A stretch of DNA of 64,000 nucleotides from an uncultured delta proteobacterium (GCA_963803975.1 CAWDOY010000017.1:649-64648), one strand, 5' to 3'; shown: positions 12,824-59,189, numbered from the stretch's first letter. The notes: a model not told the origin generated them from the letters alone. Numbers and translations: made by a program.

Positions 12824-12842
12824 TTCCCGGAGAAATTCTGCT

Positions 12843-23443: not shown

Positions 23444-23520
23444 TGGCGCGCCCAGCCCGACTCGAACGGGCGACCTGCGGATTCGAAGTCCGATGCTCTA
23501 TCCAACTGAGCTACGGGCGC
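23444..23520 (-). tRNA. tRNA-Arg (anticodon TCG), CCA encoded
   Basis: Hand-folded cloverleaf: acceptor GCGCCCG/TGGGCGC, D-arm GCTC..GAGC, anticodon loop CTTCGAA, T-arm GCCCG TTCGAGT CGGGC. Confidence 0.8.
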
Positions 23521-23525
23521 GTATG

Positions 23526-23603
23526 TGGGGTGGATGAAGGGATTTGAACCCTCGGCCCCCAGGGCCACAACCTGGTGCTCTAACCAACTGAGCTACACCC
23601 ACC
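23526..23603 (-). tRNA. tRNA-His (anticodon GTG) with encoded G-1 and C73
   Basis: Hand-folded: G-1, acceptor GTGGGTG/CATCCAC, anticodon stem CCAGG/CCTGG loop TTGTGGC, CCA encoded. Confidence 0.8.
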
Positions 23604-23659
23604 ACATATTTTCTATTATATAGATTTGCGCTTAAATATGCAAACTTAAAAATTCTCTA

Positions 23660-23736
23660 TGGCGCGCCTGGAGGGACTCGAACCCCCAACCTACGGCTTA
23701 GAAGGCCGTTGCTCTATCCTGCTGAGCTACAGGCGC
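23660..23736 (-). tRNA. tRNA-Arg (anticodon TCT), CCA encoded
   Basis: Hand-folded: acceptor GCGCCTG/CAGGCGC, anticodon stem ACGGC/GCCGT loop CTTCTAA. Confidence 0.8.
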
Positions 23737-23779: not shown

Positions 23780-24908
23780 TTAGAGATTTTTTACCGGCAC
23801 AAGCGCCTGATACAGGGAAACATATTGTTCGGTTACCGATTCCAAAGAGAATTTTTCTACCGCAGTTTTTCGAGCTTGCACGCCGAGTGCCTTTGCCAAG
23901 TCTTTATCCTGTAAAATTTTCTTCATCGCCTGATACAGTTGACCCGCATTGTCCGGCTCTACCAGGATGCCGTTGACGCCATCCTGCACCAGGTCAACAG
24001 TGCCGCCGACCCGTGTCGCGACAACCGGGAGGCCGCAGGCCATAGCCTCAAGCAGCACATTGGAGAGCCCTTCGGAGAATGACGGGAGCACAAACAGGGT
24101 GGCCTGCTGCAGATACGGCCTGATATCCGCTGTTTCGCCGCAAAAACGTATCGAATCCGCGCGGCCTGTATCACGGGCAAGCTTTGTCAATTTCTCCCTG
24201 TCAGGCCCGTCGCCGATAATGGCGAGATGGGCTGCGACGCCCGCATCGTTTAGCTGCTTAAATGCCTCAAGCAGGACATGTACGCCCTTCATGCGGTCTA
24301 GCCTTCCGACAAAGACGACAGTTAACGGCCCTTCTGCGCGCGGCAGCGGCTTGAAATAGCTGCTGTCCACGCCGTTCGGTATGCTGCAGCACCTGTTCCG
24401 GCAGAAAGCCCGCCTGCAATGCTTCCCTAGCTGATTGTGAACACACGCAGATGAGCCGGTCGGCCCGGGGGGTCTGGCGCAGCAGAAAGCCTCCACCGAA
24501 AAGGTTTTTCATCATCCTAAAATCACTGATCGGGCCGGTTGCGCCGACTTTTATAATCACCTTTTTTTTGAAAAGTGCTTTCATCAGTATGGCGGCAAGG
24601 GAGTGAAAGCCCTGCAGCAGGTGGCAGTGGATAATATCGTAGCTCCGGCGCTTCTTCAGAAGAAACCACAGGACCGAGAAGAGATACGTGAGCGCAAACC
24701 ATTTTCCCCAGGGAAGGGTCCTGATCGCCCGATAGACCAATACGCCCCGGACTGTTTCATGAGCAGGAAGCCCCTTGAACTTCCTGGTAAGAACGAAAAC
24801 CTGCACGCCGCGCTGTATCAATTGTTCGGCAAGCTGCAGGGCCTGCTGCTCTGCTCCCCCAAGATGGGGATAGAAAAAAGAAATAATTATTAAGACGCGC
24901 GGCTGCAT
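23780..24908 (-). pseudogene. GT4-family glycosyltransferase split by a +1 frameshift near 24385 (N-domain ORF 24908-24267, C-domain ORF 24496-23780)
   Basis: N-half ...FYPHLGGAEQ... ; C-half IPNGVDSSYF...EGLSNVLLEAMACGLPVVATRVGG; frames meet at ...AGFLPEQV / IPNGVD. Confidence 0.6.
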
Positions 24909-33979: not shown

Positions 33980-36667
33980 TTATAAATTTTTCTCTCTAAG
34001 CCATGCATAGATTACTTCCCCTGCCATTGGTTCCAGGGCTTTGTAGGTTTGCGCTATTTTTTTCCTTATTTCTTGCTGGTTGTCAAAGAGATACCGCATT
34101 TTTTCTATTATCTCTGCTCCTAAATGTTCCGGGGCGCACTGTATAAGGCAGTTTTCCATATCAAAGATTTTTAATGCCCCCTTGTTTTTATGAAAATAGT
34201 AATCATCAAAAGCCATCGCTATCGTTGGAACACTGCCGCCCATCGCAAATATTATCGGATGATGTTTCATGGTGAGACAAAACGCAGCGCAACGGATTGT
34301 GTCAATTGCTGCATCAATATCGTACCCATGAGCAATGGTTGCCGATGGTTGCTGCATGAATCGCGCAGCTTCATGTATTGCCGCCTCATCCGAACTGGAC
34401 ATGGGAATAAACGCAACCTGCACATCGAGGGATGCGCTGATGCTGTCAAGTGCACCGGCAATTTGCTGCATAATATCACGGGAACTGTCAGGAGACTGCC
34501 CCCAATAGTGTACATTGACTGCAATATAGGGCTTCGTAAAACTGAAGCCATTATTTGCCGACACAACGCGCGGAATGACTTTTGAGGCAACTTTATAATA
34601 CAGAGCATCATCGAAGGTGCTTTTAAATTTTGATGGCGGTACGCCGATTTGTTCAAGTGCTTTGCCGGAATCTTCCGGATCTCTGAGATAAATGCGCTGG
34701 GCTTTTTTAAATCCCCATCGTGATAGACTTCTGCTGGTGCGGTCTTTGAAGACACCTATGGTCTGGCCGGAAAGAATGGTCGGCACACCAAGCAGATCGG
34801 CCAGTCGCATGAGCAGCATATGGTCCCAAAGGCGAGACAGCGTCATTCCTGTCAAATAGCCTCCGCCGGATAAAAACAGCACGTCAGCATTATGCAGTTC
34901 ATCGAGCAAACGCGCCTGACGCGCAGTAACTCCAAAGACCGGAAGGCCTGCCCGCATCAGTCGCGCATTAAAGAGCAAAAGAGCAGCTACGGGGAAAAAC
35001 AGTTTTTTAAACAATTTTTCATTGCCAAAATAACTTTTATCTCCCCACCCAAAAAAAGCAGTGCGTGGAGCAAGCTCAGCAGAAACCTGCGGGTGGGTTT
35101 TCTGCGTGTACGATACATCAGGCGTCAGCACCGTAATCCGGGCACCAGGTGCAGCCTTTTTCCAGTGCTGAATATTTGCGGCAAGCTGTGCTTCATCCCC
35201 AATATTTCCATAGCCGTAGCCCCCGGCAATAAGCACTTTAAGTGATAGCTTCCCTTCAGCGCGGGATTTTTGCGGAGGCAAAAGACCCAAAAAACGAAAA
35301 AAAATTTTTAGAGCTGTTTTAAGAATTAGCCAGAGCTGGCGCAGCGAACGATAGATAAAGTTTATGGTTTCCTTCGCCAGAGAGTATCCATGCTTATGGA
35401 AATTACTGAAAAAAATCAGGCTGTTGACCGGGACAGCGCCAAAACGGGTGAAGCAGAACCGCGATACTTTGATGAGCCCTAAGAGCCGGAAATATTCCAA
35501 TGAATGTCGACTAATTAATCGACGATTTTTTAACCCGATTTGGTTGTTTTTATTCACCTCATGCCAGATAGCCTTTTTCCTGGCAATCCTATCCTTTATC
35601 GCTCTATGTTTAAATACCGCTGTGCCTGGCTGTGAATTATACACCTCGTCTTCATTGCAGGGCTCAAGACTTAAAATTGATTCATGATGAAGTTTCTCCA
35701 GTATGGGTAAAAGCATGCGGTTCCTGACAACAAGCAAGGATATTCCCCGGGGGTCCTTGCTGAGGCGCCCCCATGCATCTTTTACGGAAAGATCTGCATC
35801 AGCTCCATAAAAATCAGGGCAATAGAGACAGCTTTCAAGGGCGAAAAAATAATTGCGCCACATCGAAGTAAATGGGGCAAGAAACCTGTTTTTTCGGATT
35901 TCGCGGTCAGCGAGTTTGAAAAAGATATTAAAGTTATCGGCGTCAGGTATGTTGAGCTTATCCCGCAGGTTAACAAAAAAACGTTCTCCCCTCGTGATGC
36001 CCTGTTGCCGTGCCAGTTGGTCGATGAATGCCCCCGTCACATTGTGGCTGCATGCAAGGGCAATGGAAAATTTTATTTTTTCTCGCAATGAACGGGGAAG
36101 CAGTTTTATTCCGCGGACCACGCAGGGCACACCGACTAATACATACGAGCCCTCACGGTTTTTTATGTGTTTCAGAGCATCGTGATAGGTGAGGGGGTGA
36201 TAATGCGAACTTCGACAGCTTGTTATCTGCTCGGCTGTGGTAATAACATCGAGGCTATAGTGGGGGTTTCCGATGCTGGCGCACAGAGGGGTTGAGCACA
36301 GAACACCATCAATGTCATGCGATTTAAGAAGATGGGTCAGAAGCAGCGAGACAACACCACCCGAGGCGCTTTTCATGCGATTGTCTGCATTGAGGTCAAA
36401 GCTTATGAAGTAATTGGCGTTTTTTAAACCAAACTTCTCCCCATCCACCGCTGCCTTCCCGGCATACTCTGCGATTACTTCAGGTGATTGAGGACATACT
36501 TCATAGCACTTGCCGCATTGCGTACAGCCCGCAGCTGAAACAGCAGGGTTCCATATGCCGCAGGATTTCCACTCCATGGCAATGTTATCATCTGGGCACG
36601 ATGCGGTGCATAGTCCGCAGCCGGTACAAAGATTGTTTTTTATAATTTCTTTTATTGTGAAGGGCAT
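33980..36667 (-). CDS. fusion protein: coenzyme F420-hydrogenase/dehydrogenase beta-subunit-like Fe-S/flavin domain + polysaccharide pyruvyl transferase (CsaB/WcaK-like)
   Basis: N-term two 4Fe-4S motifs CTGCGLCTASCP / CTQCGKCYEVCP and FrhB-like region; C-half KVLIAGGYGYGNIGDEAQLAANIQHW... pyruvyl-transferase pattern; 895 aa. Confidence 0.65.
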   Translation of the reverse strand: MPFTIKEIIKNNLCTGCGLCTASCPDDNIAMEWKSCGIWNPAVSAAGCTQCGKCYEVCPQSPEVIAEYAGKAAVDGEKFGLKNANYFISFDLNADNRMKSASGGVVSLLLTHLLKSHDIDGVLCSTPLCASIGNPHYSLDVITTAEQITSCRSSHYHPLTYHDALKHIKNREGSYVLVGVPCVVRGIKLLPRSLREKIKFSIALACSHNVTGAFIDQLARQQGITRGERFFVNLRDKLNIPDADNFNIFFKLADREIRKNRFLAPFTSMWRNYFFALESCLYCPDFYGADADLSVKDAWGRLSKDPRGISLLVVRNRMLLPILEKLHHESILSLEPCNEDEVYNSQPGTAVFKHRAIKDRIARKKAIWHEVNKNNQIGLKNRRLISRHSLEYFRLLGLIKVSRFCFTRFGAVPVNSLIFFSNFHKHGYSLAKETINFIYRSLRQLWLILKTALKIFFRFLGLLPPQKSRAEGKLSLKVLIAGGYGYGNIGDEAQLAANIQHWKKAAPGARITVLTPDVSYTQKTHPQVSAELAPRTAFFGWGDKSYFGNEKLFKKLFFPVAALLLFNARLMRAGLPVFGVTARQARLLDELHNADVLFLSGGGYLTGMTLSRLWDHMLLMRLADLLGVPTILSGQTIGVFKDRTSRSLSRWGFKKAQRIYLRDPEDSGKALEQIGVPPSKFKSTFDDALYYKVASKVIPRVVSANNGFSFTKPYIAVNVHYWGQSPDSSRDIMQQIAGALDSISASLDVQVAFIPMSSSDEAAIHEAARFMQQPSATIAHGYDIDAAIDTIRCAAFCLTMKHHPIIFAMGGSVPTIAMAFDDYYFHKNKGALKIFDMENCLIQCAPEHLGAEIIEKMRYLFDNQQEIRKKIAQTYKALEPMAGEVIYAWLREKNL

Positions 36668-40020: not shown

Positions 40021-41455
40021 TTATATCTTTTCTGATTTTTCCCTTGTCCTGTAAAAATTCAAAATAGGCCTGATTGCCGACCCACATGCTGACTGCAGCC
40101 CCCGGAGGTATATCTCCTGTTTAATATCTCGAGAAACTTGCTCATTGACCACATCATACCAGTATGTGGTCTCCATGCCAAGGGCATAAGCGCCCCTGAC
40201 TCCGCCGACAAGCTCATTGTAGTAACAGAGCTCATAGGGGTGGATGCGCATCGTTTGATAGGCCGGGTAGAGGGTAAAAATAGCCAGTGCAGCCGGGATG
40301 AGAACTTTTTTTATTTTCATCGCTGGCATCATTCGTTCGGTGAGAAAATAAAACCCTGCGCCGGAAAAATAAGCCATGAAAGGAAACAGGTAAAAAAATT
40401 GCCGCGTGCCGTCATGCACCGGTGCATTGGGCAGCATGGTAAGGAAGAGCGGGAACAGGCAGTTGATAAGCATTAAATTATTAAATCGACGGTTTGCGGT
40501 ATCGCGATAAAGAGTCAGCAGCCCCAGCATAAAAGTAACAAGAGTGGTCACTGGTACGGTAATTGCGGTCATGATCCATGCATAGGTCCAGGGCGGGGAA
40601 AAAGAATAGGTTTTGCCCAGGAAAAAGGTGGGAATCCGGATGGAATCTTCCCTGTGACAGGCTGATCTGTACAAAGTTTACAATCTTTCCTATGGGATCA
40701 TGCCACCATCCCGGGTTTACCAGAAGGGCCAGCAGCAGCGCCAGCGGCAGTGCGATAAGTAAATTACTTAGGCCCCGCCGTTCCTTATATAAAAGGGCCC
40801 ATACCAGGAGGGGCACCGGGAGTAACAGCCCGGTAAATTTTGTGGCAATGGCACATCCCCACAGGATGCCAAACAGTATGATACCTGAGCGACGAGTTAA
40901 TCCTCTCCAAAATGCGAAGACTGCCAGCAACCAGAATGTCGTGAGCGGAATTTCTGTCGCTGCAATATGGGCATGGCCAAAAAACCTTGGTAAAAACAGC
41001 AGGGACATACTGCCGCACAGCCCTGCCAGTTTGCCATAGCGGCTGTTTAAGATAAAAAAGACAGTAAGCAGCAGTACGGTGCTTAAAAAGGCCGGGGCGC
41101 ACCGATAGGCCACCAATTCTCCACAATAGCCTTTAAGACAGGCTAAGGAAATCCCGGCAAGAATCCTGGCGAGGGGGGGATGGGGATTGTGTGAAATATC
41201 CCACAGCCAATACTGGTCGGTAATAGTCCGGGAAAGAATGGCGCCGGGTGTGCCATGAAACAAAGCAGTACCAAGCGCACGACTCCATGCAATAATCAGC
41301 TCTGAAGACTTGAAATAATATACTTCATCCCAGGTCCACCCTATATCATGAGCGGTCAGGATAATAACAAACAGGGAGAAGATGCCAATTACCAGGCCCA
41401 GGAATCCTGCCATTGCTATACTATGGGTATGCTGCGGGGCAGTGTTTTTTTCCAT
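40021..41455 (-). pseudogene. GT-C fold ArnT/PMT-like (GT83/GT39-type) membrane glycosyltransferase split by frameshift near 40650 (ORFs 41455-40481 and 40674-40021)
   Basis: N-part WDEVYYF...HPPLARIL; C-part IPTFFLGKTYSFSPPWTYAWIMTAITVP; frames meet at ...ISLSQG/RIPTFF. Confidence 0.55.
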
Positions 41456-45625: not shown

Positions 45626-46786
45626 TCAGGTTAAGCTTCTATACAACAAAATGTAGCGTTCGGCGACGGTGTCTAAATTAAAATGCTCTGTTACCGTTTT
45701 CTGTGCTGTAGCGCCCAGTTTGCGAGCTTTTTCTGGGTGGGATATCAAATCTAAAATCGCGCGGGTTAGATGCCCTTCGTCATCCCGGTCAACCAAAAGT
45801 CCGCTGATATCGTGCTCAATAAGTTCCCTATTCCCGGAAACTCTCGTCGCAATGACCGGCAGCGCACACGCCATAGCTTCAAGAACTGAATTTGACATGC
45901 CCTCATGTAATGAGGGCATAACAAAAATATCGGCAATGTTCAGAAACACGGTCACATCCGTAACTCCCGGGACCAGGTGCACTCGGTCTTCCAGGTGGTT
46001 TTGGACGATCAGTTTCCGTATCCTGGACCGCTCAGGGCCATTACCGACAATATACAGTTTAAAGGGGATAGAGCGCGGAGTGAGCCTGGAACATGCGCGG
46101 ATAAGAAAATCCACCCCCTTCTCGCGGGCAAGTCGTCCCGTATACAACAGTATTGTTTCATCATTGACTCCAATTTCCTTTCGTCGTGCCTTCCGGTCAG
46201 ATGACGGTTTGAACACAGCACGATCAACTCCATTGGGAATATGAACGATTGCCTGCTGGTCATACCCTATGGTGCCAAGCTCGCGCTTCATCTCCCTGTT
46301 TAAAATCACTGTCCGTGACGCAAGCCGGCACAGAGCAAGAAAAACCCGCCCCCAGGGCGAGCGCTTGTGCCGGTTGATATCGCCCCCCCTGCCGCTTCCG
46401 GCTAAATTGAGAATGGTCGGCTTTTTGAAAAGTTTCCCGGCAAGCATTGCCAGTGCCGAGCTGTATCCCACCTGAAATGCATGAATCATATCAAAACTGG
46501 CACGGCGCTTATAAAGATGGCTCCACAGAAAACACAAAAAAATAACTCCGCCAATTATTTTAATGCGCGGTGAGGGAAGCCTGCAGACAGGAACCCCTTG
46601 TATCACTTCCTGCCGTGGCCATGAGCGGTAAAATCTGCTGGTAATAATTTCGACCTTGATTCCTCTTTGCACGAGGACAGAAGCAAGGTTCAGGGTCTGC
46701 TTCTCCCGCCCGCCGATAAAAGGATGGAAGTATCTGATGACGAAAATAATGTTAAGCGATTTTTGGCCGTTTGAACGAGTATCCAA
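45626..46786 (-). CDS. glycosyltransferase family 4 (GT-B)
   Basis: FHPFIGGREKQ; HIPNGVD; EGMSNSVLEAMACALPVIATRVSG. Confidence 0.85.
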   Translation of the reverse strand: MDTRSNGQKSLNIIFVIRYFHPFIGGREKQTLNLASVLVQRGIKVEIITSRFYRSWPRQEVIQGVPVCRLPSPRIKIIGGVIFLCFLWSHLYKRRASFDMIHAFQVGYSSALAMLAGKLFKKPTILNLAGSGRGGDINRHKRSPWGRVFLALCRLASRTVILNREMKRELGTIGYDQQAIVHIPNGVDRAVFKPSSDRKARRKEIGVNDETILLYTGRLAREKGVDFLIRACSRLTPRSIPFKLYIVGNGPERSRIRKLIVQNHLEDRVHLVPGVTDVTVFLNIADIFVMPSLHEGMSNSVLEAMACALPVIATRVSGNRELIEHDISGLLVDRDDEGHLTRAILDLISHPEKARKLGATAQKTVTEHFNLDTVAERYILLYRSLT

Positions 46787-46921
46787 GAGCCTTTACACCC
46801 TTTCTGCGCAAGCCTTGATCTGACAACAATCTACTGGGTTGCGGTCCTGTTCACGGCGATAATTATTCCCATCAATGCCCAGAAAGCAGGAGAAACGGAG
46901 ACCACGCTGAAAATAAAGCAG

Positions 46922-48205
46922 TCATTTAGCAGATATCCGAAGACATGCTGCTATAAACCCGCAGTAGATTATCTTCCGGGACGGATTTTGCTCAGCCCTC
47001 ATGGACTTAACCAGCAACGCAAGGAAGGTCGCAATAATTGTCAGATAGGCAAAAAGGCCGATCAATCCCTGACTAATCGCCATGTCCAGATAATTATTGT
47101 GGGCTCTGTCTATAAGGCCTGAGCACTTGAACCTGCGGGCATACTCAAGATTAAATTTTTCCATGGCTATTGCGTGGGTATCAGGGCCGTAGCCCAGAAG
47201 CGGTCGCTCCTTGATCAGTGAAATGGCCATGTTCCACAGATAGAGACGGGCACTGACATCCCCCGTGCCCGGATCAAGAATCCTTTCTATTTTGCTGATT
47301 ACCGTAGGGGTAACCTTGCCATCCGCAACAGGTTTTTTGAGCAGCGACTGGGCTTCCCAGGACATGGCAACAGCAATCAATATCCCGGTTATAATAAACA
47401 GTTCTTTCTGCTTGCTCCATGCTATTTTTCCCCGCAACAGCATGGCAAGCAGCATAACGCTGCAGGCAAAACTGAACCAGCTGGCCCGGGTGAACGTCAG
47501 AATCAGGGCACAAAATGAGATTGCACATCCTGTTAAAAGGAGGTATTTTTCTCTCCGGCGGACAGCCGCGGCATAATATACTATATAAAGCGGCAAAATG
47601 AGAACAAGAAATTTGCCCAGAAAATTCGGGTTGCCGATGGTGCTTCCCGGACGATTTTCAACACCACGCAGGAGCGGAATAAAATGTTCTGTCGGATTAA
47701 AACCGAGATACTGGATTATAGCGTACAGTGAAACAAGAAACGCAGTGACAAGCAGTCCCTTTATCAGGTTATGCGCCTGTTTTTCTGTTTCAACCATAGA
47801 AGCAAAGACAAATGTGAGGGCGCCATATGAAAGAATAGTAAAAATACCCTCTTCCCTGAACATATCACCATGGATACTGAGTTTAGGATTGATTGAAGCC
47901 CAAGCGGATAAAATACTCGCAATGCCATAGGCAATGAGAGGAATGGTGAGAAGGTTACCCTTGATTGCCGGAGGCTTACGCAGAACAATCGCCCGCGCTA
48001 CTGCGGCTATACACAAAACAGCTAACAGAGCATAAACTGAGTCAATTTTAGGCTTGTACCAGTAGTCAAACGCAAAGGGATTGATTATAAGAGGAACAAC
48101 GGCAAAAAGAAAAAACAGACATATGCTTATTATCCGGTCGATAATCAGACCAGCGGATATGCCTGTCAGCGATTCACCTGCAAACCTTTTTTTCATACAA
48201 AACAT
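46922..48205 (-). CDS. Wzy_C-superfamily (O-antigen ligase/polymerase-like) membrane protein; positionally TfpO/PilO-like candidate pilin O-oligosaccharyltransferase
   Basis: ~10-12 TM; RAHNNYLDMAISQGLIGLFAYL Wzy_C signature; 95 bp downstream of pilin gene on same strand. Confidence 0.6.
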   Translation of the reverse strand: MFCMKKRFAGESLTGISAGLIIDRIISICLFFLFAVVPLIINPFAFDYWYKPKIDSVYALLAVLCIAAVARAIVLRKPPAIKGNLLTIPLIAYGIASILSAWASINPKLSIHGDMFREEGIFTILSYGALTFVFASMVETEKQAHNLIKGLLVTAFLVSLYAIIQYLGFNPTEHFIPLLRGVENRPGSTIGNPNFLGKFLVLILPLYIVYYAAAVRRREKYLLLTGCAISFCALILTFTRASWFSFACSVMLLAMLLRGKIAWSKQKELFIITGILIAVAMSWEAQSLLKKPVADGKVTPTVISKIERILDPGTGDVSARLYLWNMAISLIKERPLLGYGPDTHAIAMEKFNLEYARRFKCSGLIDRAHNNYLDMAISQGLIGLFAYLTIIATFLALLVKSMRAEQNPSRKIIYCGFIAACLRISAK

Positions 48206-48236
48206 GCCTTATTATCGGCTCATTTCTCCCATAACA

Positions 48237-48275
48237 TAAAAAAGGCAGATGCTTTTATACCTCAAAGCCTCTGCC
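48237..48275 (-). terminator. rho-independent terminator after pilin gene (minus-sense GGCAGAGGCTTT...AAAGCATCTGCC + T7)
   Basis: Seen directly in the pilin-Wzy_C spacer. Confidence 0.45.
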
Positions 48276-48300
48276 TTTTGTAATGTATTTTTATCTCACA

Positions 48301-48768
48301 TTAGCTGGTAGTGTATTTCTCGATTCCGGAGGGAGATATCTCTATGGTAGAGCCGGTCAGAGCAGCAGGCACGCCGGATACGGTCACGGTAATAAGATAA
48401 TTTCCTGGCTCAGTAGGATCTCCACCCTCGGCTGACTGGGACTGATAGGTAAAACCTGAAAACCCCTGTCCAACCATGGTTGGTTTCAATGTGGCGCCGT
48501 TAGCATTACAAATATCTAATAAACCAGTATCTGTCGTCTCCCAGTCAGCTATGACGCCGGGAAAAAGATTACCGGGTGATGTTGCAGCAAAGCCAGCCAG
48601 AGCCCCGCGGATGGATTCGGCTGTTCCTATTGAGGCCGCTATACGTGATTTATCGCGGTAAGCAATAAAGTTGGGGACCGCAATTGCCGCAAGGATACCA
48701 ATGATCGCCACGACGATCATCAGTTCGATTAAGGTAAAACCCTTTTCATGTCTTAATTTTGAAATCAT
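48301..48768 (-). CDS. type IVa pilin (prepilin with class III signal; mature N-term [24 protein letters not shown]); C-terminal residue Ser
   Basis: Leader [10 protein letters not shown]|[20 protein letters not shown]; RBS GGAGGA 9 nt upstream. Confidence 0.9.
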
Positions 48769-48932
48769 TGTTAAATCCTCCTACGTGTTAGTTGTTCATG
48801 TTTACTTGTTTAAGGGGTAAGACGTACATTGATTATTTTGTTGTGACTATTTTTATTTTTTGTTTTACACCTCCCTTCTGTGTCTGTGGTTATTTGCTTT
48901 TTGTCTTATATTATTTTTTGTTTTCAATAGTA

Positions 48933-48948
48933 CGCAATCTCTATGCCA
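48933..48948 (-). promoter_or_regulatory. sigma54-type -24/-12 promoter (TGGCATAGAGATTGCG) upstream of pilin gene
   Basis: Minus-strand read of 48948-48933; GG and GC elements at exact consensus spacing; ~165 nt upstream of pilin start; sigma54 activator encoded 4 kb upstream. Confidence 0.5.
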
Positions 48949-49065
48949 AAAGCAGCTTCAAAAAACAATGATGATATTCCAAGCAGTTATAAAAATATGC
49001 GGATCACATCCCATTGCAGGCAAACAATGATATGACGATTATGGTCACTTGGTTGCCGTATTTTG

Positions 49066-51196
49066 TCACTTGTCAGCATGGTTCAGCTTGGCAAGCATCT
49101 GTTCAATAAGGGCTTTGTGCGGATAATCTGGGTCAATGGCCAGCACCTGCTTAAAATGATACCGAGCCTGGTTCTGCTCTTCCGGGAACAGCATGTATGC
49201 CGCAGCTATATTAAAATGGGCTTCTACATAGGACGGATTAAGGTCAAGGGCCTTTTTATACTCTTGGATGGCGTTACGCGGCTTACCGATATTGAAAAAA
49301 ACAATCCCGGTATTTAAATAGATCTCAGGGGATGAAGGGCGGAGCGTGGCAGCTTTCGTCAGAAACGGCAAGGCCTTATCAAAAAGTTTTTGTTTAATAT
49401 ATAACAGGGCGATATTATTCAGGGCCTCATAATTTGATGCATCAAAGGAAAGGGCTGTTTCGTAATGCTTGAAAGCACTGGCAACGTCCCCCTCCTGCAT
49501 ATAAAAGAGCCCGAGCGCATTATGCACGTAACTGCTGTGGGGGGCTAACGGTAAGGCTGTCTGGTATTCAGCAAGAGCTTTTTGCTTATCCCCCTGATCA
49601 TTATACACCAGCCCCCTGTTCAAATAAGCTTGTGCGAAGTCCGGTTTGATTTCAAGTGCTTTTCGAAACCATGCCAATGCCTTTACATAGTCACCGGTTT
49701 CCCTGCAAATCATGCCGATATTATTGCAGGTCTCTGCAGAACGCGTATTGAGGGTAAGGACTTTTTCATAGGCAGCCAGCGCCGGTGCATATTCCTTCTT
49801 CAATGAGTAGGCAAGCCCGAGGTTGCCGTATGCTTTTTCAGCCGCCGGGTTGAGCTTAAGAGCCCGGTTCAAATAGTTTATGGCGTCGTCATATTTTTTT
49901 TCTCTTATCTGAGCAGATCCCAGGTTGTTTAATGCGGTCACAGAGTTTGGCGATTTTTTTACCGTGTCACTCCATACTGATACATCATTCTGCCATATAC
50001 GGTTTCTCTCCACCGTTAACAGGCTATATAGTATTACTATAAACACAGCAATTCCATACCCCAGATTCCTTTTTTTACCCTGCCCTGACGCAGCAATGCC
50101 CGCAGAGTATCGACTACACGCGACAGACAGCATGAGACAAAACCCGATGCTCGCCCCGTACAGCCGGTGCTCTAAAATCGGCACCCCCATCCATATAACA
50201 CCGCTCACCGGGAGAAGATATATTAGTATCCACAACATGCCGAACGCAACTTCACGGTAAAATTTTCTCCATACTCCGCCAATAATAAAGCACACCAGAA
50301 ACAGGTAACACGGGATAAACCGGGGACTTAAAAAAGCTTCTTTAAAAGGTATGGAGGGAGCTACCGTAAGATTGACGGGAAAAAAGAGCACCTTCAGATA
50401 ATAGCAATACACGGCCAGTGGTGTCGTCAAGGCAGTTGCTATGCTGGCGGTTTGCAGCTCAAACCGGGAGCCCAGGTCAGTGAAAGCCAGACGCCTGAGC
50501 AGAAGAAAACAGAGCACAACGACCCCCAGAAGCCCATAGACAAATACCGTTTCACCGCGCCGCTGTCTGCTCCATGAGTCTTTCTGATAAAAGAAGTCAA
50601 TCAGAGCGAGAAGCGGCACCATGACGATTGCCGTTTCCTTGGTCAGAAGGGAGCAGGCAAAACTGCAACAGGAAAGTGCATAACAGCCCGTTTTGCTGTA
50701 GGGCTCCTGTGTCTGGCGGGCCTGCAGTAAAAAAACGAGCGACAGCAAAAAAAACAACATCATAAGCGGGTCATTTCTTCCTGCTATCCAGGAAACAGCT
50801 TCGGTCTGCACCGGATGGGTGGCAAATAGCGCGGCGGTAAGCACTGCGATGTTAGAAGAAAATCCGAGATTAAGGATAAACCAGCACACAAGAGCGGTGT
50901 TGAGGAGATGCAGCAGGAGATTGGTTATATGAAATCCCAGCGGATTGATCCCCCATATATAATAATCGAAAAAAAATGAAGCCCAGAGCAGCGGCCGGTA
51001 ATAGGGGGTTTGCTGCAAAATGAGGACTGAAAAACAGCGATGATAAATTTCCAATGTCTTCAAAATATTCAACTTGTGCGGCAATAAGCCCGCTATCATC
51101 CCAGACAAAACCGCCGTTGAGTGAATTTGCGTATACCACGACCGTGAGAGCAAGAACTGCTATAATTTTATTTGACGGATACTGGAATATTTTCAC
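49066..51196 (-). pseudogene. TMTC-like GT-C membrane protein (DUF1736-type N-terminal domain) with C-terminal TPR array; N-terminal 50 codons in different frame (shift at C5/G5 run ~51005-51009)
   Basis: N-term fragment MKIFQYPSNKIIAVLALTVVVYANSLNGGFVWDDSGLI (ORF 51196-50870) continues as ...YYRPLLWASFFFDYYIWGINPLGFHITNLLLH in main ORF; C-terminal ~9 TPR repeats. Confidence 0.6.
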
Positions 51197-51295
51197 GGTA
51201 TCAAAACTATATGTGATACGTTTTTATTTTTTGGGTCTGCGAAGCCGGGCCTTGGTGATATGTTTTAGGAACAGCATCAGCAGGAATGGGCAGTT

Positions 51296-53008
51296 CTATT
51301 GCGGCAGACAAATAATAAAGCTCGCTCCATGGCCGGTACTGCTGACAACAGAAATAGTGCCGCCAAGTTCCTCAATAATACGATACACAATCGAAAGACC
51401 GAGTCCGGTGCCGCGCTCTTTTGTGGTATAAAAGGGTTCAAAAATTTTATCCTGTTCACTCTCGCCAATCCCGCATCCGCTATCCCTGACTATTATCTCT
51501 ACCTTGGTTTTAGGGCTTGCACCGGGGGCAGCGGGCTTTAATGCGCGTGCTGCGGTTAAACCGCCTGCCGTATAATGAGCAGTAAGGGTTATTTCTCCAC
51601 GGTCATCATTGATTGCCTGTGCTGCATTTATAAGGAGATTCCATAGCACCTGCTTGAACTGCTGGGGATCTGCCTTAAAATAGATATCTTCACTGATGTT
51701 CTGGCTGATGGTGATATTGCCCCGGCACTCAGCGCTGTTATGAAACAGCTGCAGGGTTTCCTCGACCAGGGTCTTAAACTGAATCGGCTCCTTTTTCTGT
51801 GTGTTAGGCCGGGCAAACTGGAGAAAGTTGGAGATCAGTCCATTCAGGTTGTCACTCTCGCGTAATACAATATCCATCAGGCGTTTATCACTATCGCTCA
51901 AGCTGAGATTTTTCTGCAGCACCTGAACAGAACCCCTGATGGAAGCCAGGGGATTTCGAACCTCATGGGCTATTCCTGCGGCAAGCCGCCCAATCGCAGC
52001 CAGGCGGTCCATGCGTTTCACATACTCTTCCATTTCTTTTAGCAGGGTTAAATCCTGAAATGCTAAAATGTTGCCGATCTCCTGTCCCGTTCCATCTTTA
52101 AGAATAGAAGATGAAATTCCCAGCTGCAGCACCCTGCCGTCAGCCTTGGTAAAGGGTGCTTCAAAACGTACGGGGATATTACCATCGGTTTGATTGCCGG
52201 TGATATGGTAGGGCATTGTGCTGTCGCCAAAAATCTCGGTGACATGGCGTTTATATATCTGCGCCTGGGAAAATCCCGTTATCTGTTCGGCAGCTTTGTT
52301 CAAGGTAATAATGTGCCCCTCGGTATCAAGGGTGAGCAACCCGCTATTGATGCTTTGAATAATATTTTCATTGAGCGCTTCAAGCGTTTTAATATCGATC
52401 TGCTTTTCTTTCAGCTGAAGCTTTGATTTGCGCGCCTGTTCAGAAACAAAGCTGCTGAGGAGAGCAACCAGGTAAAATGCCGTAATATTAACAATAACCG
52501 GGTATACCAGAGGTTCCTCCGAGTACCCACGCGCAATAAAGGCGGATATTTGCAGCGGATGAATAATGCCGAAATATTGAAAACTTACCAGCAGGCTGTA
52601 GCAAAAACTTGCTCCGGTAGCAGCGAGAAGGCTTCCTGAGCGGTACAGCAGGATGCTGGCAGAAATGATGGAGATACTGTACATAAAGGGAAAAATGCTA
52701 TTGACGCCACCGGTTATAAAAAGCAGGGCTGTGATCAGAAGGATGTCCATCATGATCTGGAAATAGCAGAACAGTTTTAAATTGATTATCTTATAGATGA
52801 GGCTTGCATAGATAAAGGTAAGGACAAAGATCCCGGCAGTAAGACCGTACAGACAGATAAGATACGGGGCAAGATATGATTCACTGCGCTGCAGTTGGGC
52901 GATGATGGCAATTCCCAGGAAAAAAGACGCAACCATGACCCTGCACAGCATGAGCCACTGAAGCCTCTTCTGAAACTCTTCCTTTATATCTGCTGGATTT
53001 TTATTCAT
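51296..53008 (-). CDS. sensor histidine kinase with 6-TM N-terminal domain, PAS, HisKA, HATPase (PilS-like architecture)
   Basis: H-box AAGIAHEVRNPL; G-boxes DSGCGI..GTGLGLSIV; N-terminal polytopic region as in PilS. Confidence 0.8.
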   Translation of the reverse strand: MNKNPADIKEEFQKRLQWLMLCRVMVASFFLGIAIIAQLQRSESYLAPYLICLYGLTAGIFVLTFIYASLIYKIINLKLFCYFQIMMDILLITALLFITGGVNSIFPFMYSISIISASILLYRSGSLLAATGASFCYSLLVSFQYFGIIHPLQISAFIARGYSEEPLVYPVIVNITAFYLVALLSSFVSEQARKSKLQLKEKQIDIKTLEALNENIIQSINSGLLTLDTEGHIITLNKAAEQITGFSQAQIYKRHVTEIFGDSTMPYHITGNQTDGNIPVRFEAPFTKADGRVLQLGISSSILKDGTGQEIGNILAFQDLTLLKEMEEYVKRMDRLAAIGRLAAGIAHEVRNPLASIRGSVQVLQKNLSLSDSDKRLMDIVLRESDNLNGLISNFLQFARPNTQKKEPIQFKTLVEETLQLFHNSAECRGNITISQNISEDIYFKADPQQFKQVLWNLLINAAQAINDDRGEITLTAHYTAGGLTAARALKPAAPGASPKTKVEIIVRDSGCGIGESEQDKIFEPFYTTKERGTGLGLSIVYRIIEELGGTISVVSSTGHGASFIICLPQ

Positions 53009-53031
53009 TGCCGGAGCTCGTCGCTGCAGGG

Positions 53032-54453
53032 TTAGGGTTTCAATGTCTGTTCATTAAACTTGCCTTTTTCCAGCCGGTACCGCATGGAGCGAAATGAGAT
53101 TCCCAAAAGTTTAGCAGCACCCGTAATAGACCCTTTTGACAATTTTAACGCTTCGGTAATATATTCCTTTTCATAGCGTTCCAGTATCTCATCAAGCTGC
53201 ACCCCTTCAGGCGGAATCAATACTTTTTTCTGATCTGCGGTTGGGAATTTTTCCTGTTCTTCTGCCTTAAATTTTGAAAGCTCCAGACTCTCCGGGAGCA
53301 TGATACTGGTATTAGCCAGGGCTACTCCCTTCTCGATGATGTTTTCCAGTTCGCGCACATTGCCGGGAAAGGAATACTGCAACAGACAGTCCATGGAATA
53401 GGACGAGATTTCGGTAACCTGTTTGCCGAGTTCCTGGGCATATTTTCTGAGGAAGAAGTTAGCGAGCAGCGGTATATCATCTTTGCGTTCCCGCAGCGGC
53501 GGAATATGCAGGTGAATGACATTGAGCCGGTAGTAGAGGTCCTCCCTGAAGGTGCCTTCAATAACCTTTTTTTCAAGGTCCTTATTGGTTGCAGATATTA
53601 TGCGCACATCCACTTTTACTTCCTCCGTACCGCCCACCGGCATGAAGGTTTTTTCCTGCACTACTCTGAGCAGTTTTACCTGGAGAGAAAGCGGCAGTTC
53701 CCCTGCTTCATCCAGGAAAACGGTTCCCCCGTCTGCCACCTCAAAAAATCCCTTTTTATTAATAGTAGCGCCGGTGAATGCACCTTTTTTATAGCCAAAC
53801 AGCTCGCTTTCAAGAAGCGCTTCGGGGATTCCTCCGCAATTTATGGGAACAAACGGCAGGGCGCTGCGCGGGCTCTGTGCGTGGATTGCCTTTGCTACCA
53901 GCTCTTTGCCGGTCCCGCTTTCTCCGGTTATGAGGACATTTGTTTTTGATGTGGCGGCCCGCGGGATGATGTCAAATATCTTTTTCATTTCCGGACTGGC
54001 GCCCAGTAAATGTTCAAACTGCGGTACCCCGTCTCCTGCGTGCGGGATTTTTGACAGCGCCCCCAATTCCCTGTCTGCTGGAGCCTGTTCTGCTCTCTGG
54101 GCAAGAGCTGCTTCAATTTTTTTCTTTACCTCTTCAACATCAAAGGGCTTGGTAATATAATCGTATGCCTCCTTTTTCATTGACTCTTTTGCCGTTTCAA
54201 ATGAGGCAAAAGCGGTAATCATGAGAAAGATAGTTTCCGGGGAAAATTCCTTTACCTTGTTCAGGAGGCTGATGCCGTCCATGCGCGGCATTTTAATATC
54301 TGCGATGACCACATCAAAAGGCATTTTTTTGCAGTACGCTAAGGCTGTTTCGCCATCTGCGGCGGTCATCACCTCATATCCTTCCCGCTGCAGGTAGATC
54401 TCGAGCATTTCCCGTATTCCCTGTTCATCATCTACAATCAAAAGCCTCGGCAT
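53032..54453 (-). CDS. sigma54-dependent response regulator (NtrC family; PilR-like)
   Basis: REC domain (DDE..D..K), AAA+ GESGTGKE, GAFTGA motif, C-terminal HTH. Confidence 0.9.
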   Translation of the reverse strand: MPRLLIVDDEQGIREMLEIYLQREGYEVMTAADGETALAYCKKMPFDVVIADIKMPRMDGISLLNKVKEFSPETIFLMITAFASFETAKESMKKEAYDYITKPFDVEEVKKKIEAALAQRAEQAPADRELGALSKIPHAGDGVPQFEHLLGASPEMKKIFDIIPRAATSKTNVLITGESGTGKELVAKAIHAQSPRSALPFVPINCGGIPEALLESELFGYKKGAFTGATINKKGFFEVADGGTVFLDEAGELPLSLQVKLLRVVQEKTFMPVGGTEEVKVDVRIISATNKDLEKKVIEGTFREDLYYRLNVIHLHIPPLRERKDDIPLLANFFLRKYAQELGKQVTEISSYSMDCLLQYSFPGNVRELENIIEKGVALANTSIMLPESLELSKFKAEEQEKFPTADQKKVLIPPEGVQLDEILERYEKEYITEALKLSKGSITGAAKLLGISFRSMRYRLEKGKFNEQTLKP

Positions 54454-57913: not shown

Positions 57914-59189
57914 ATGCACATAAAGCATCTGCATTTTCTTGAACATATTGAGATTCCGGAACTTACCGAGTGTGAATGGAACTATCCCTGCCCTTCTCTG
58001 CCCGCGGTTGAAGAGGAATTAACACGGCAGATCAGCACCTCTTCTCTGGCGGCAAGAATTAAGCCGGGAGACCGCATAGCAGTGACTGCCGGCAGCCGCG
58101 GCATAGCCCGCATTGATACCATTCTCGCCGTAATCTGCAAGGAAGTAAAAAGGCTCGGTGCTCATCCGTTTATTATCTCTGCCATGGGCAGTCATGGGGG
58201 TGCTACCGAGGAAGGCCAGCGGGAAATACTGAATGGTTATAACATCACGCCGGAGCGGATCGGCGCGCCGGTTGTCTGTGCAACCACTGTGGTTGAAATC
58301 GGCAGAACCCCGGACGGGATGCCGGTATTCTTTGATGAAGAAGCGCTCAAGGCTGACGGGCTCATTGTTGTCAACCGTATCAAGTCTCACACCAGCTTTC
58401 AATCAGCAACCGAGAGCGGTATTCTGAAAATGCTCGCAGTCGGGCTTGGTAAAGACCGGGGAGCCCGCCATATCCACCAGCTGGGCACGCGGGGTCTTAA
58501 ACAGGGCATTCCCCAGGCAGCACGCATTATTATGGACACGGTACCCGTGCTGCTTGGCATCGGGATAATTGAAAACGCCCGGGGCAGTATTGCCGTCATT
58601 GAAGCCCTGGAGCCGGAGCAGATAGAGGCTGCAGAAGAGCGGCTGCTTCAGCAGGCAAAAGCTCTGATGCCGATGATTCCATTCAACAAGGTGGATGTTC
58701 TCATTGTTGCTGAGATGGGGAAGAACATCAGCGGCACCGGAATGGATACCACGGTAATCGGCAGAAGAATGATCAGCGGGGAGCCGGAGCCCGCGTGCCC
58801 GCAGCATAGCGAGAATTGCGGTACTGGACCTCTCCCCGGGCTCCTATGGAAATGCAACCGGTCTTGGTTTGGCTGATATTATCACCCGGCAGTTGTATGA
58901 CAAAATTGATTTTGCCAAGACCTGGTTAAATATCATCAGCTCAACCTTTATCGAGCGGGCAAAAATCCCCATCACCATGCCCACCGATAAAACAGCCATT
59001 CAGCTTGCTCTCATGACCTGCTGGGTAGCGCAGCCCGGTAAAGCGCGGGTGGTATTGATAAAAAACACCGCTTCCCTGGGGAGATTGTATATCTCAAAAC
59101 CGCTGGCAGCTGAAGCCCGGCAGGTTGCCCGCCTGCACTGTGCGGAGCGCTTCGTGCCGCCTGCATTCACCATGCAGGCATACGCTTGA
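57914..59189 (+). pseudogene. DUF362 / LarA_N-like domain protein, apparently frameshifted near 58775-58800 (ORFs 57914-58876 and 58869-59189; second frame open from 58773)
   Basis: ...ADGLIVVNRIKSHTSFQSATESGILKMLAVGLGKDRGARH pattern; second frame continues IAVLDLSPGSYGNATGLGLADIITRQLYD. Confidence 0.4.

Follow-up and report, generated by a model that had tools for sequence, protein, structure and literature searches.

The pilin island of Pseudomonas aeruginosa exists with five pilA alleles, each of which has its own accessory genes and is exchanged with them as a unit. In Pseudomonas, TfpW is associated with pilin group IV and TfpO with another, group I. The pilin-glycosylating protein TfpW of P. 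aeruginosa has 646 aa, 11 transmembrane segments, a DDX motif, and C-terminal TPRs; it is the pilin D-arabinofuranosyl transferase of the group IV strains Pa5196/PA7, in which tfpW lies 3′ of the pilin gene (bioRxiv 10.1101/2020.04.19.049825). TfpO (440-470 aa) and TfpM (420-440 aa) are without the large C-terminal periplasmic domain of PglL and PglS (PMC9829042). O-oligosaccharyltransferases (O-OTases) of this kind and the ligase WaaL are not separable by sequence (PMC3643930).

Here, we describe a pilin locus from an uncultured relative of the sulfate reducers, a lineage for which our literature search found no experiment and no glycoproteomic data. The minus strand of the window (the whole 64-kb stretch of DNA analyzed) carries, in order, pilR, pilS, a gene for a GT-C glycosyltransferase with TPRs (GT-C/TPR), the pilin gene, and a Wzy_C gene. 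This order had been given by a first-pass annotation of the same DNA, and domain and ORF analysis bore it out (Table 1).

Table 1. Features of the window, with the evidence for each assignment
Feature	Coordinates	Strand	Basis
PilR-type sigma54-dependent response regulator	53032-54453	-	Pfam Response_reg, Sigma54_activat, AAA_lid_14, HTH_8
PilS-type histidine kinase	51296-53008	-	Pfam 6TM_PilS, PAS, HisKA, HATPase_c
GT-C glycosyltransferase, ∼9 C-terminal TPRs, TfpW-like architecture (GT-C/TPR)	49066-51196	-	Pfam PMT + TPR families
Sigma54 -24/-12 element, TGGCATAGAGATTGCG (match TGGCATAGAGATTGC at 48934-48948)	48934-48949	-	5′ of pilin gene
Type IVa major prepilin, 155 aa	48301-48768	-	Pfam N_methyl, NCBIfam PilA-type N terminus
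Intrinsic terminator (A-tract, GC hairpin, T-run) 3′ of pilin	48235-48278	-	RNA folding
Wzy_C (O-antigen-ligase family) membrane protein	46831-48205	-	Pfam Wzy_C, 8e-21
ABC-transporter-type glycan locus, possible donor source; from 46786 down: GT4, YfhO, two PMT_2, Wzm, Wzt with Wzt_C, methyltransferase; then FrhB-pyruvyl transferase fusion, KpsC/S-like, two GT2, two GT4, methyltransferase, AsnB-like amidotransferase, GT4 (to 23780)	23780-46786	-	Pfam + NCBIfam
Split GT4	23780-24908		
Split PMT_2	40021-41455		
Split GGDEF protein gene	11489-13286		
Split LarA-like gene	57914-58876		

Results

The two regulators had been read as a sigma54-dependent response regulator and a PilS-like kinase, and the Pfam domains agree for both. 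pilR stands beside pilS in all related loci that extend far enough. pilS is the final gene of a conserved backbone, with 92-95% nucleotide identity to the related loci L010 and L033 and a collapse of identity beyond it. The prepilin has a 10-residue leader ending in Gly, a mature N terminus reading FTLIELM, a single Cys, and the C terminus EKYTTS, which confirms the terminal Ser noted earlier. The identical protein is encoded on eight independent contigs. The sigma54 element claimed upstream of the gene is present: it is the single match within the window, where at least one chance match occurs in 44% of shuffles, and an equivalent box lies 83-180 nt 5′ of the gene in 13 of the 16 related pilin genes examined. 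The pilin gene is also followed, as proposed, by a terminator of its own, a strong hairpin (−26.7 kcal/mol, z = −4.9) with a T-run that nearly all related loci retain. [quoted passage not shown] In most loci, a strong terminator stands between the pilin and Wzy_C, an arrangement that counts against a pilin role of the latter.

Both enzyme genes are broken by single-base insertions in this assembly. The 2131 nt given for GT-C/TPR are not one ORF: they span two frames, the first ∼60 codons being out of frame with the rest, with an extra C at ∼51015 relative to six contigs (∼97-99% identical). Intact copies read SPHFEQTPYYRPLL at this site, and L017-L021 and L024 encode the intact protein, whose length is 709 aa once the insertion is removed. 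For Wzy_C, the start and the domain stood, whereas the end had to be moved. The listed ORF (46922-48205; 427 aa) is shortened by a 1-nt insertion at ∼46942, and the restored frame, like the homologues, reaches ∼46831, for a protein of about 457 aa (454-463 aa with homologues included, which have 450-463 aa in one comparison and 444-470 aa in another and continue past the listed stop as AACFGYLLNDCFIFSVVSVSP). In ∼99% identical strains known from short-read-type assemblies, Wzy_C is intact at 454 aa.

The Pfam PMT match of GT-C/TPR is weak (27.5 bits). An AF2 model (pLDDT 89) has a GT-C plus TPR fold, and its membrane domain superposes on Pmt4, Pmt2, and ArnT, which are among the closest solved folds in structure comparison. 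The DD motif at residues 33-34, part of a DDx in periplasmic loop 1, is invariant across orthologues, and a loop motif, Y266-x6-P273-x6-P280 (YLKVLFFPVNLTVAP), resembles the YX6PFX7P of TfpW, a protein known here by description only. The first-pass annotation had called the protein TMTC-like. As in TMTC1-4, an N-terminal GT-C/PMT-clan domain with DD precedes non-cytoplasmic TPRs (PMC7801869). In contrast to the human TMTCs, which all match the DUF1736 loop model at E < 1e-19 (PMC7801869), the window protein gave no match to TMTC_DUF1736 (PF08409) at E ≤ 1 in the HMM check that had been proposed, and 1 of 16 relatives matched (E = 0.002). Because this model is unmatched, membership in the TMTC family is ruled out, and the resemblance is one of architecture. 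Further differences are the bacterial origin of the window protein and a donor predicted to be a polyprenyl (undecaprenyl) phosphate sugar.

Nor is GT-C/TPR the undescribed kind of pilus-locus component that it had been taken for; TfpW is already a pilin-adjacent GT-C with TPRs, and with this precedent a GT-C/TPR pilin glycosyltransferase is not new as such. Compared by description, the two share a GT-C membrane domain with DD(x) in periplasmic loop 1, a large periplasmic C-terminal TPR domain (646 vs. 709 aa in total), and a gene that adjoins the major pilin gene within a pilin-allele-specific accessory set; a conserved Tyr/Pro motif, in a later loop, is similar in the two. They differ in that the window gene lies 5′ of the pilin and tfpW 3′, that the host lineage here is Thermodesulfobacteriota, that no D-Araf genes (DprE1/DprE2) lie near GT-C/TPR, and that GT-C/TPR shares its cassette with a Wzy_C gene.

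A gap in score divides the group of GT-C/TPR orthologues (at least 39% identity, ∼705-725 aa) from paralogues (≤34% identity). Every orthologue examined is linked to a pilin gene, and neither of the two paralogues examined is. At least 13 distinct loci have the gene between pilS and the pilin; in the window, 100 nt separate it from pilS. About half of the related loci have pilRS and the pilin without it, and its slot is filled by other GT-C genes in L080 (YfhO) and L071 (a 655-aa GT-C).

The HMM check proposed for the gene downstream of the pilin returned the claimed Wzy_C domain, which 39 of 39 relatives also have. The catalytic-type Arg and His of DRAHNNY (IIDRAHNNYLD) are invariant in the family. 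PglL_A (PF15864) and Wzy_C_2 were found in 0 of 39 relatives (PglL_A sought at E ≤ 1), and the window protein, examined as a PglL-type general O-oligosaccharyltransferase, gave no PglL_A match at E ≤ 0.01. No second Wzy_C gene was found in the 64-kb window. The family profile matched a 610-aa “Oligosaccharyltransferase” (9rmk; E = 3.5e-9) and WaaL (7tpg; E = 3e-8) about equally, and the best NCBIfam matches were ligase-type families, all under the cut-off. For P0002, an 81% identical Wzy_C protein, the AF2 model (pLDDT 85.7) had WaaL (7tpg_B) as its sole significant Foldseek match (E = 4e-7, TM 0.57/0.63). Because O-OTases too have this fold and the Wzy_C motif, such matches do not discriminate. 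Sequence and modeled fold appear to fit both a TfpO/TfpM-type pilin O-oligosaccharyltransferase and a WaaL ligase for the adjacent glycan locus, and cannot separate the two.

The context of the gene can be set against both. Like TfpO (PilO; P. aeruginosa group I and Acinetobacter) and TfpM (Moraxellaceae), the window enzyme is a ∼455-aa Wzy_C protein whose gene directly follows that of the pilin on the same strand; the pilin ends in Ser, and an Und-PP-linked donor could come from the glycan locus next door. Unlike in those systems, a strong terminator precedes the enzyme, the pilins are without a disulfide loop beside the tail, and a terminal Ser/Thr is not family-wide. With WaaL (7tpg), it shares the Wzy_C domain with conserved Arg and His and a place at the edge of an O-polysaccharide-type locus; it differs from WaaL in being co-inherited with the pilin and GT-C/TPR, and neither with the core genome nor with the genes of the glycan locus, and in a family that is pilin-adjacent in ∼90% of informative loci.

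Most related pilins keep G-[IV]-x-[KR]-x-[TS] ahead of a tail of 0-5 residues; the pilin sets L015, L062, and L071 have longer tails or depart from the near-terminal Thr/Ser motif. The last residue is Ser, Thr, or Tyr in 25 of 42 distinct pilin sets (60%; ∼16% expected, kinship uncorrected) and G, A, L, E, H, N, P, K, F, M, or Q in the other 17. Such an ending occurs in 11 of 12 pilin sets with GT-C/TPR vs. 7 of 16 without (Fisher p = 0.016). By sequence comparison, most related pilins retain a Thr/Ser close to the C terminus; Ser as the very last residue is not kept throughout the family. Of the “exact TfpO geometry” that had been proposed, the position of Wzy_C directly 3′ of the pilin stands, whereas the terminal Ser is no family property.

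The synteny comparison that the first-pass annotation had named as a way to refute its proposal showed that the trio of pilin, Wzy_C, and GT-C/TPR recurs. Of 48 informative loci of uncultured Thermodesulfobacteriota, ∼43 (∼90%) have the pilin directly 5′ of Wzy_C and co-oriented with it, with Wzy_C identity in this set extending down to 38%. Five Wzy_C family members (44-49% identity) have no upstream pilin. The 4-nt overlap between the last pilin-like gene and the start of Wzy_C in a three-pilin subclade implies a single operon there. Taken by itself, such synteny is weak evidence: pyrB-pyrC-pilR-pilS is conserved to the same degree and has no functional link.

From pyrB to pilS, L010 and L033 have 92-98% nucleotide identity to the window, and L058, whose contig begins within pilS, has 87% in that gene. 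In all three, GT-C (63-64%), pilin (64-67%), and Wzy_C (61-62%) are far more divergent; the downstream GT4 is at 59% in L010 and L033 and lies outside the L058 contig. L002 shows the other edge: identity is 85% in pilS, 92% in GT-C, 91% in the pilin, 85% in Wzy_C, and 60% in GT4, and its blastn homology block stops at 46868, at the Wzy_C 3′ end. The downstream genes are replaced and Wzy_C is kept in the pairs L004/L038, L004/L039, and L011/L038. Recombination breakpoints thus separate pilS from GT-C/TPR (in L010, L033, and L058) and Wzy_C from GT4 (in L002), the Wzy_C-side boundary resting mainly on the L002 comparison, plus the L004/L011/L038/L039 group. Because these shared breakpoints separate the trio from pilRS and from the glycan operon, GT-C/TPR, pilin, and Wzy_C appear to be a co-inherited cassette. 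That this cassette is a horizontally exchangeable unit between conserved pilRS and a variable glycan operon is, jointly with the mechanism given below, what we consider probable. As in the P. aeruginosa pilin island, pilin and accessory enzyme genes are replaced together in strains that are otherwise nearly identical (window vs. L010, L033, and L058); the cassette here differs in being flanked by pilS and a glycan operon.

The module had been placed at the end of a large glycan-assembly locus, and glycan genes indeed occupy ∼23.8-46.8 kb, with three tRNA genes (23444-23736) directly past them. No Wzx or Wzy polymerase was seen in this locus, and no polyprenyl-phosphate-sugar synthase, flippase, or initiating transferase was identified within the window. 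Because it is of the ABC-transporter type with Wzt_C and methyltransferases, the locus requires a WaaL-type ligase. Glycan genes always adjoin Wzy_C, which counts against a pilin role.

Discussion

Both enzymes might instead serve the neighboring polysaccharide, an explanation that, taken whole, we consider unlikely, though it deserves weight. Wzy_C would then be a WaaL-type ligase to lipid A-core, or a related ligase or polymerase; GT-C/TPR would be one of five periplasmic GT-C decorators, with YfhO, two PMT_2, and Wzy_C counted; and the pilin would lie between the two enzymes only through block inheritance of the neighborhood in the clade. A pathway with Wzm, Wzt with Wzt_C, and methyltransferases and without Wzx/Wzy ends with a ligase, and the first gene past the terminator of the pilin is Wzy_C, on the same strand as GT4-YfhO-PMT_2 and contiguous with it. 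WaaL 7tpg is the only significant structural neighbor of Wzy_C, its best NCBIfam matches (all below cut-off) are ligase-type, and some of the family occur in a glycan context that has no pilin. As pyrBC-pilRS illustrates, genes can be neighbors for purely historical reasons, and sequence does not distinguish WaaL from O-OTases (PMC3643930). Inheritance argues the other way. Wzy_C tracks pilS, GT-C, and the pilin, not the glycan genes (L002 vs. the window; the L004/L011/L038/L039 pairs), and it has been swapped with the pilin between strains with a 93-99% identical backbone (L010, L033), which is odd for a ligase because its lipid A-core acceptor should be constant. In one subclade, it overlaps a pilin-like gene by 4 nt. 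GT-C/TPR orthologues, for their part, are exclusively pilin-linked, with the pilin between them and the glycan genes. TPR arms serve to bind proteins, and the sole characterized bacterial pilin-adjacent GT-C/TPR acts on the pilin.

GT-C/TPR could also be no enzyme of the pilin at all, being rather a PilF/PilW-like TPR scaffold in pilus assembly or a partner of PilS in sensing. Its place directly after pilS, across a 100-nt gap, fits such a role, which is nevertheless very improbable: the catalytic DD and other GT-C motifs are invariant in orthologues, the membrane domain superposes on Pmt4, Pmt2, and ArnT, and the gene belongs to the variable cassette, outside the conserved pilRS block, with about half of the related loci doing without it while keeping pilRS and the pilin. 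Only slightly less improbable is that the frameshifts are real, so that in this strain both accessory genes are pseudogenes, or are expressed by way of +1 ribosomal frameshifting or phase variation only, and the pilin bears no modification. Each of the two breaks is a single-base insertion of the +1 type, and the one in Wzy_C recurs in the independent contig L018. Yet at least five other genes of the window are likewise split, including non-glycan ones (GGDEF, LarA-like, GT4, and PMT_2 among the split genes), neither insertion lies in a phase-variation-type repeat tract, and other long-read-type (“contig_”) assemblies have different indels, in other genes. L020 and L021, two short-read-type assemblies (JGI and MEGAHIT-type) with 99.2-99.3% nucleotide identity, have both enzyme genes and all other split genes intact. 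Because intact genes are carried by such ∼99% identical assemblies, both frameshifts are almost certainly long-read assembly errors, not biology.

We therefore return to glycosylation of the pilin, for which the precedents, motifs, and inheritance pattern suggest claims of different strength. At least one of the two enzymes probably glycosylates the pilin. GT-C/TPR is the likelier of the two, and the balance favors its acting on the pilin; for Wzy_C, the case for and against such a role is evenly poised. That both act on the pilin is a tentative proposal, with the chances rather against it.

PilS and PilR would activate the sigma54 promoter, the pilin would be abundant, and most transcripts would end at the terminator. 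Lodged in the inner membrane, the prepilin would expose to the periplasm a globular domain and a flexible C-terminal tail, the tail presenting K-x-T/S plus 0-5 residues, often with Ser, Thr, or Tyr last. O-glycosylation would take place on the prepilin in the periplasm, prior to assembly. GT-C/TPR, built like TfpW, may hold the pilin with its periplasmic TPR arm while its DD-motif GT-C domain transfers a sugar from a polyprenyl-phosphate-sugar. Wzy_C, with the size and gene position of TfpO/TfpM, may transfer an undecaprenyl-diphosphate-linked glycan en bloc, the donor coming from the neighboring ABC-transporter pathway. By analogy with the known Pseudomonas systems, the pilus of this organism would most likely be sugar-coated by the cassette that carries its pilin gene.

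Results

On the minus strand, the window carries pilR, pilS, a gene for a GT-C membrane protein with TPRs (GT-C/TPR), a pilin gene, and a gene for a Wzy_C-family protein, in the order proposed by the first-pass annotation, and the promoter and terminator that it had assigned to the pilin gene were also recovered. The σ54 element is the single match in 64 kb; because at least one match occurred in 44% of shuffles, the window match alone is not significant. An equivalent box lies 5′ of 13 of 16 related pilin genes. The stem of the pilin terminator contains an internal mismatch and a bulge; it was missed by a simple scan and recovered by folding, and a hairpin with a T-run is kept 3′ of the pilin gene in nearly all related loci.

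Features of the pilin region and of other sites in the window (positions in the window)
Feature	Position	Strand	Remarks
PilR-type σ54 activator	53032-54453	-
PilS-type kinase	51296-53008	-	6TM_PilS domain
GT-C/TPR membrane protein	49066-51196	-	many TPRs; between PilS-type kinase and pilin
σ54 element TGGCATAGAGATTGCG	48934-48949	-	5′ of pilin
Type IVa prepilin	48301-48768	-
Pilin terminator, hairpin + T-run	48235-48278	-	-26.7 kcal/mol, z = -4.9 (folding)
Wzy_C protein	start 48205	-
ABC-transporter-type glycan locus	~23.8-46.8 kb		downstream of Wzy_C
GGDEF protein, truncated	11489-13286		domain cut at 96/161
GT4, split	23780-24908		N- and C-halves in different frames
PMT_2, split	40021-41455		550 aa in relatives
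LarA-like gene, truncated	57914-58876		320 vs 428 aa

Both enzyme genes had been listed as single genes (49066-51196 and 46922-48205) but are frameshifted in the window: the former interval measures 2131 nt and spans two reading frames, and the Wzy_C ORF ends ~30 codons sooner than all homologues. Eight independent contigs encode exactly the same pilin protein, and their DNA is ~97-99.5% identical to that of the window. Compared with these, one extra base is present in the window at ~51015 (GT-C/TPR; placed by alignment with intact near-identical genes) and one at ~46942 (Wzy_C), with further ones at 46831, 40654, 40142, 40117, and 39979. Across the break, the intact GT-C/TPR sequence is ..SPHFEQTPYYRPLL... 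Two related loci, L020 and L021 (a JGI contig and a MEGAHIT-named contig), encode intact GT-C/TPR (709 aa), Wzy_C (454 aa), and PMT_2 (550 aa); in the other “contig_” assemblies, the indels are different ones and lie in other genes. At four other window sites, genes are split or truncated, apparently through single-base indels, which is consistent with an unpolished long-read assembly. The frameshifts in GT-C/TPR and Wzy_C are thus very probably assembly artefacts, and we treated both enzymes as intact.

We gathered ~100 related loci from GTDB genomes, JGI metagenomes, and a protein collection; every named source is an uncultured MAG, assigned to Thermodesulfobacteriota or labeled “delta proteobacterium,” and the samples are of lake and sediment type. 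The arrangement recurs among these relatives, which the first-pass annotation had set as a check. With Wzy_C identity as low as 38%, the order pyrB-pyrC-pilR-pilS-(GT-C/TPR or nothing)-pilin(s)-Wzy_C-glycan genes is kept, and a pilin gene stands directly 5′ of Wzy_C in ~43 distinct loci of those with enough upstream DNA; five loci (L040, L043, L077, L079, and L087) have none there. GT-C/TPR is the usual gene between pilS and the pilin gene, with YfhO (L080:3874-6321) or a 655-aa PMT-like GT-C (L071:5111-7078) taking this slot elsewhere; divergently encoded GT-Cs occur in three loci [L047:2400-4238(-), L055:5328-6986(-), and L085]. In one subclade (L051, L053, L056, L067, L068, L072, and L076; e.g., L067:6397-9257), pilS and Wzy_C are separated by a tandem run of three pilin-like genes, and GT-C/TPR is missing. 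The last of the three and the Wzy_C start codon overlap by 4 nt, which makes this subclade the clearest case of Wzy_C in one operon with pilin-like genes. Nevertheless, synteny alone is weak evidence, because pyrBC adjoins pilRS just as faithfully without a functional link. In several relatives, the GT4 next to Wzy_C is followed by a radical SAM/SPASM gene (L001:6337-7578, L002:7197-8399, L003:2793-4031, and L006:12837-14072); it is missing from the window, where YfhO directly follows the GT4.

The most informative result of the analysis concerns the boundaries of sequence identity between related loci. Compared with the window, L010 and L033 share 92-98% nucleotide identity from pyrB to pilS, and L058, whose contig begins inside pilS, shares 87% over pilS. 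In all three, identity drops exactly at the GT-C/TPR start, to 63-64% (GT-C/TPR), 64-67% (pilin), and 61-62% (Wzy_C), and the following GT4, not covered by the L058 contig, is 59% identical in L010 and L033. In L002, pilS is 85% identical to that of the window, GT-C/TPR 92%, the pilin gene 91%, Wzy_C 85%, and the GT4 60%; its downstream genes differ from those of the window, and the blastn block stops at 46868, the Wzy_C 3′ end. L002 carries the same cassette type as the window on a more distant backbone. In three further pairs of loci (L004/L038, L004/L039, and L011/L038), Wzy_C stays in step with pilS and the downstream genes are replaced. Together, these comparisons indicate that GT-C/TPR, pilin, and Wzy_C form a unit inherited and exchanged together, separate from the regulators and the glycan operon, in parallel with the pilin islands of Pseudomonas aeruginosa, in which pilin alleles travel with accessory genes. 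Between L047 and L085, pilS, GT-C/TPR, Wzy_C, and the downstream genes are 99-100% identical, whereas the pilins (L047:6898-7359 and L085:7356-7820) are 86% identical, pointing to diversification or recombination confined to the pilin gene.

GT-C/TPR has an invariant DD motif and a conserved Y-x6-P-x6-P loop motif, and an AF2 model of an 89% identical orthologue reached pLDDT 89 and pTM 0.86. A single-sequence PDB search and a GT-C domain profile search found nothing. The Pfam search gave a weak PMT match and no match to TMTC_DUF1736, so the TMTC likeness suggested from sequence holds for architecture and fails at the TMTC family model. The closer precedent is the bacterial TfpW of P. aeruginosa rather than TMTC: TfpW is a GT-C of 646 aa and 11 TM helices that has a TPR domain in the periplasm and depends on a DDX motif; its gene adjoins pilA, and its O-glycosylation target is the pilin (bioRxiv 10.1101/2020.04.19.049825). 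Given this precedent, the claim that no pilus locus had been described with a protein of this sort was incorrect in kind, although the window protein differs from TfpW in gene position, lineage, and pairing with Wzy_C. Its orthologues (at least 39% identity, ~705-725 aa) are set off from generic paralogues by a clear score gap; every orthologue examined was pilin-linked, and neither of the two paralogues examined was.

The restored Wzy_C protein (457 aa) lies inside the size range of TfpO and TfpM (440-470 and 420-440 aa, respectively; PMC9829042). The ..DRAHNNY.. and GNPNFLGK motifs are invariant across its family. In the comparison with PglL models that had been suggested for this gene, neither PglL_A nor Wzy_C_2 matched any of 39 family members; a single-sequence PDB search found nothing. 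The family profile gave no discrimination, with near-equal scores for 9rmk, an “Oligosaccharyltransferase” of 610 aa (3.5e-9), and WaaL 7tpg (3.4e-8). With the AF2 model of an 81% identical relative (P0002; pLDDT 85.7), Foldseek returned WaaL as the sole significant match, and 9rmk was absent from the matches. O-OTases and WaaL have been described as inseparable by sequence (PMC3643930); our sequence and fold tests agree that TfpO/PglL and WaaL cannot be told apart in silico.

Most related pilins end in ..G-[IV]-x-[KR]-x-[T/S] and a tail of 0-5 residues, and three distinct pilin sets (L015, L062, and L071) have a longer tail or depart from this motif. Among 42 distinct pilin sets, 25 have S, T, or Y as the last residue, much more than composition predicts (without correction for phylogeny). 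A C-terminal Ser, as in the TfpO geometry, is therefore true of the window and no rule of the family. An S/T/Y end was found in 11/12 pilin sets with GT-C/TPR versus 7/16 without (P = 0.016, kinship ignored); the idea that a C-terminal hydroxyl tracks GT-C/TPR rather than Wzy_C looked strong with 16 loci, became modest with 42 sets, and was downgraded. The conserved near-terminal hydroxyl residue on a short tail is compatible with glycosylation and could equally be structural.

The module stands, as noted from sequence, at the end of a large glycan locus. This locus encodes Wzm, Wzt with a Wzt_C domain, methyltransferases, GT2 and GT4 glycosyltransferases, a pyruvyl transferase fusion, two PMT_2 proteins, and YfhO; neither Wzx nor a Wzy polymerase was seen in it. 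The fusion [33980-36667(-), 895 aa] joins a redox module, a 4Fe-4S ferredoxin plus FrhB/FdhB-like (F420 hydrogenase beta-like) domains, to a CsaB-type polysaccharide pyruvyl transferase. Directly beyond the last GT4 lie three tRNA genes, Arg(tcg), His(gtg), and Arg(tct) [23444-23736(-)]. They may delimit the variable region on its far side, in the way that a tRNA-Thr bounds the Pseudomonas pilin island. Several proteins had their best matches, all sub-threshold, among XrtA/PEP-CTERM families: an amidotransferase (25055-26989; TIGR03108, 652 bits versus a cut-off of 817), a GT4 (45626-46786; stp2), Wzy_C (46831-48205; PEP_O_lig_1, “putative O-glycosylation ligase”), and the regulator (53032-54453; PEP-CTERM-box response regulator). 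An XrtA/PEP-CTERM system was rejected because the window has no exosortase gene and the kinase has a PilS 6TM domain.

Discussion

We favor reading this region as a pilin-glycosylation cassette, predicted throughout. PilSR and σ54 would drive pilin expression, and in the periplasm the TfpW-like GT-C/TPR would attach O-linked sugar to the membrane-anchored prepilin, with a polyprenyl-P-sugar as donor and the TPR arm as acceptor clamp. The TfpO/TfpM-like Wzy_C may also glycosylate the prepilin, using Und-PP-glycan from the neighboring ABC-transporter pathway. GT-C/TPR more likely than not acts on the pilin, and for Wzy_C the chances are about even; that at least one of them does so is likewise more likely than not, and that both do is doubtful.

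The alternative is that Wzy_C is the WaaL-type ligase for the adjacent O-polysaccharide, that GT-C/TPR is an extra periplasmic GT-C decorating that glycan, and that the pilin gene lies between them by inherited synteny. A glycan locus of this type needs a ligase, the sole significant fold match is WaaL, a terminator parts the pilin gene from Wzy_C, and a few Wzy_C family members have no upstream pilin. However, the cassette boundaries set Wzy_C apart from the glycan genes it would serve, Wzy_C is swapped between strains whose backbones are 93-99% identical, and the GT-C/TPR orthologue group is found only beside pilins. We consider this alternative, the main rival, less likely than the favored reading.

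Both types of enzyme are already known as accessory glycosyltransferases of pilins; new here are the lineage, the orthologue group, and the flanking of one pilin by both types in a single exchangeable cassette. We know of no characterized pilus system with both routes in one locus. Literature searches for pilin glycosylation in Desulfobacterota/Deltaproteobacteria and for TPR/O-mannosyltransferases with type IV pilins found nothing relevant. In its fullest form, the proposal is that one pilin is served by two mechanistically different periplasmic routes (polyprenyl-phosphate GT-C/TPR and Und-PP polymer Wzy_C), both acting on the short hydroxyl-rich C-terminal tail, and that the unit is swapped between near-identical strains for surface variation or phage evasion; we offer this as a speculation that, taken whole, is rather improbable.

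The glycosylation of pilins by accessory enzymes whose genes adjoin pilA has been studied in depth in a few Gammaproteobacteria and in Neisseria, where it influences the assembly and antigenicity of pili and the resistance to phages, and O-oligosaccharyltransferases of that type serve in making conjugate vaccines. If the favored reading is true, the cassette carries this principle into uncultured Thermodesulfobacteriota of anoxic freshwater habitats and adds a distinct pilin-tied GT-C/TPR orthologue group, a new clade of small pilin-adjacent Wzy_C enzymes, and the first locus with both enzyme types flanking one pilin. Such a finding, here reached by prediction, would if confirmed matter to pilus and glycoconjugate specialists. 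Moreover, near-identical backbones with different cassettes would provide a clean natural experiment on the diversification of pilus surface chemistry.
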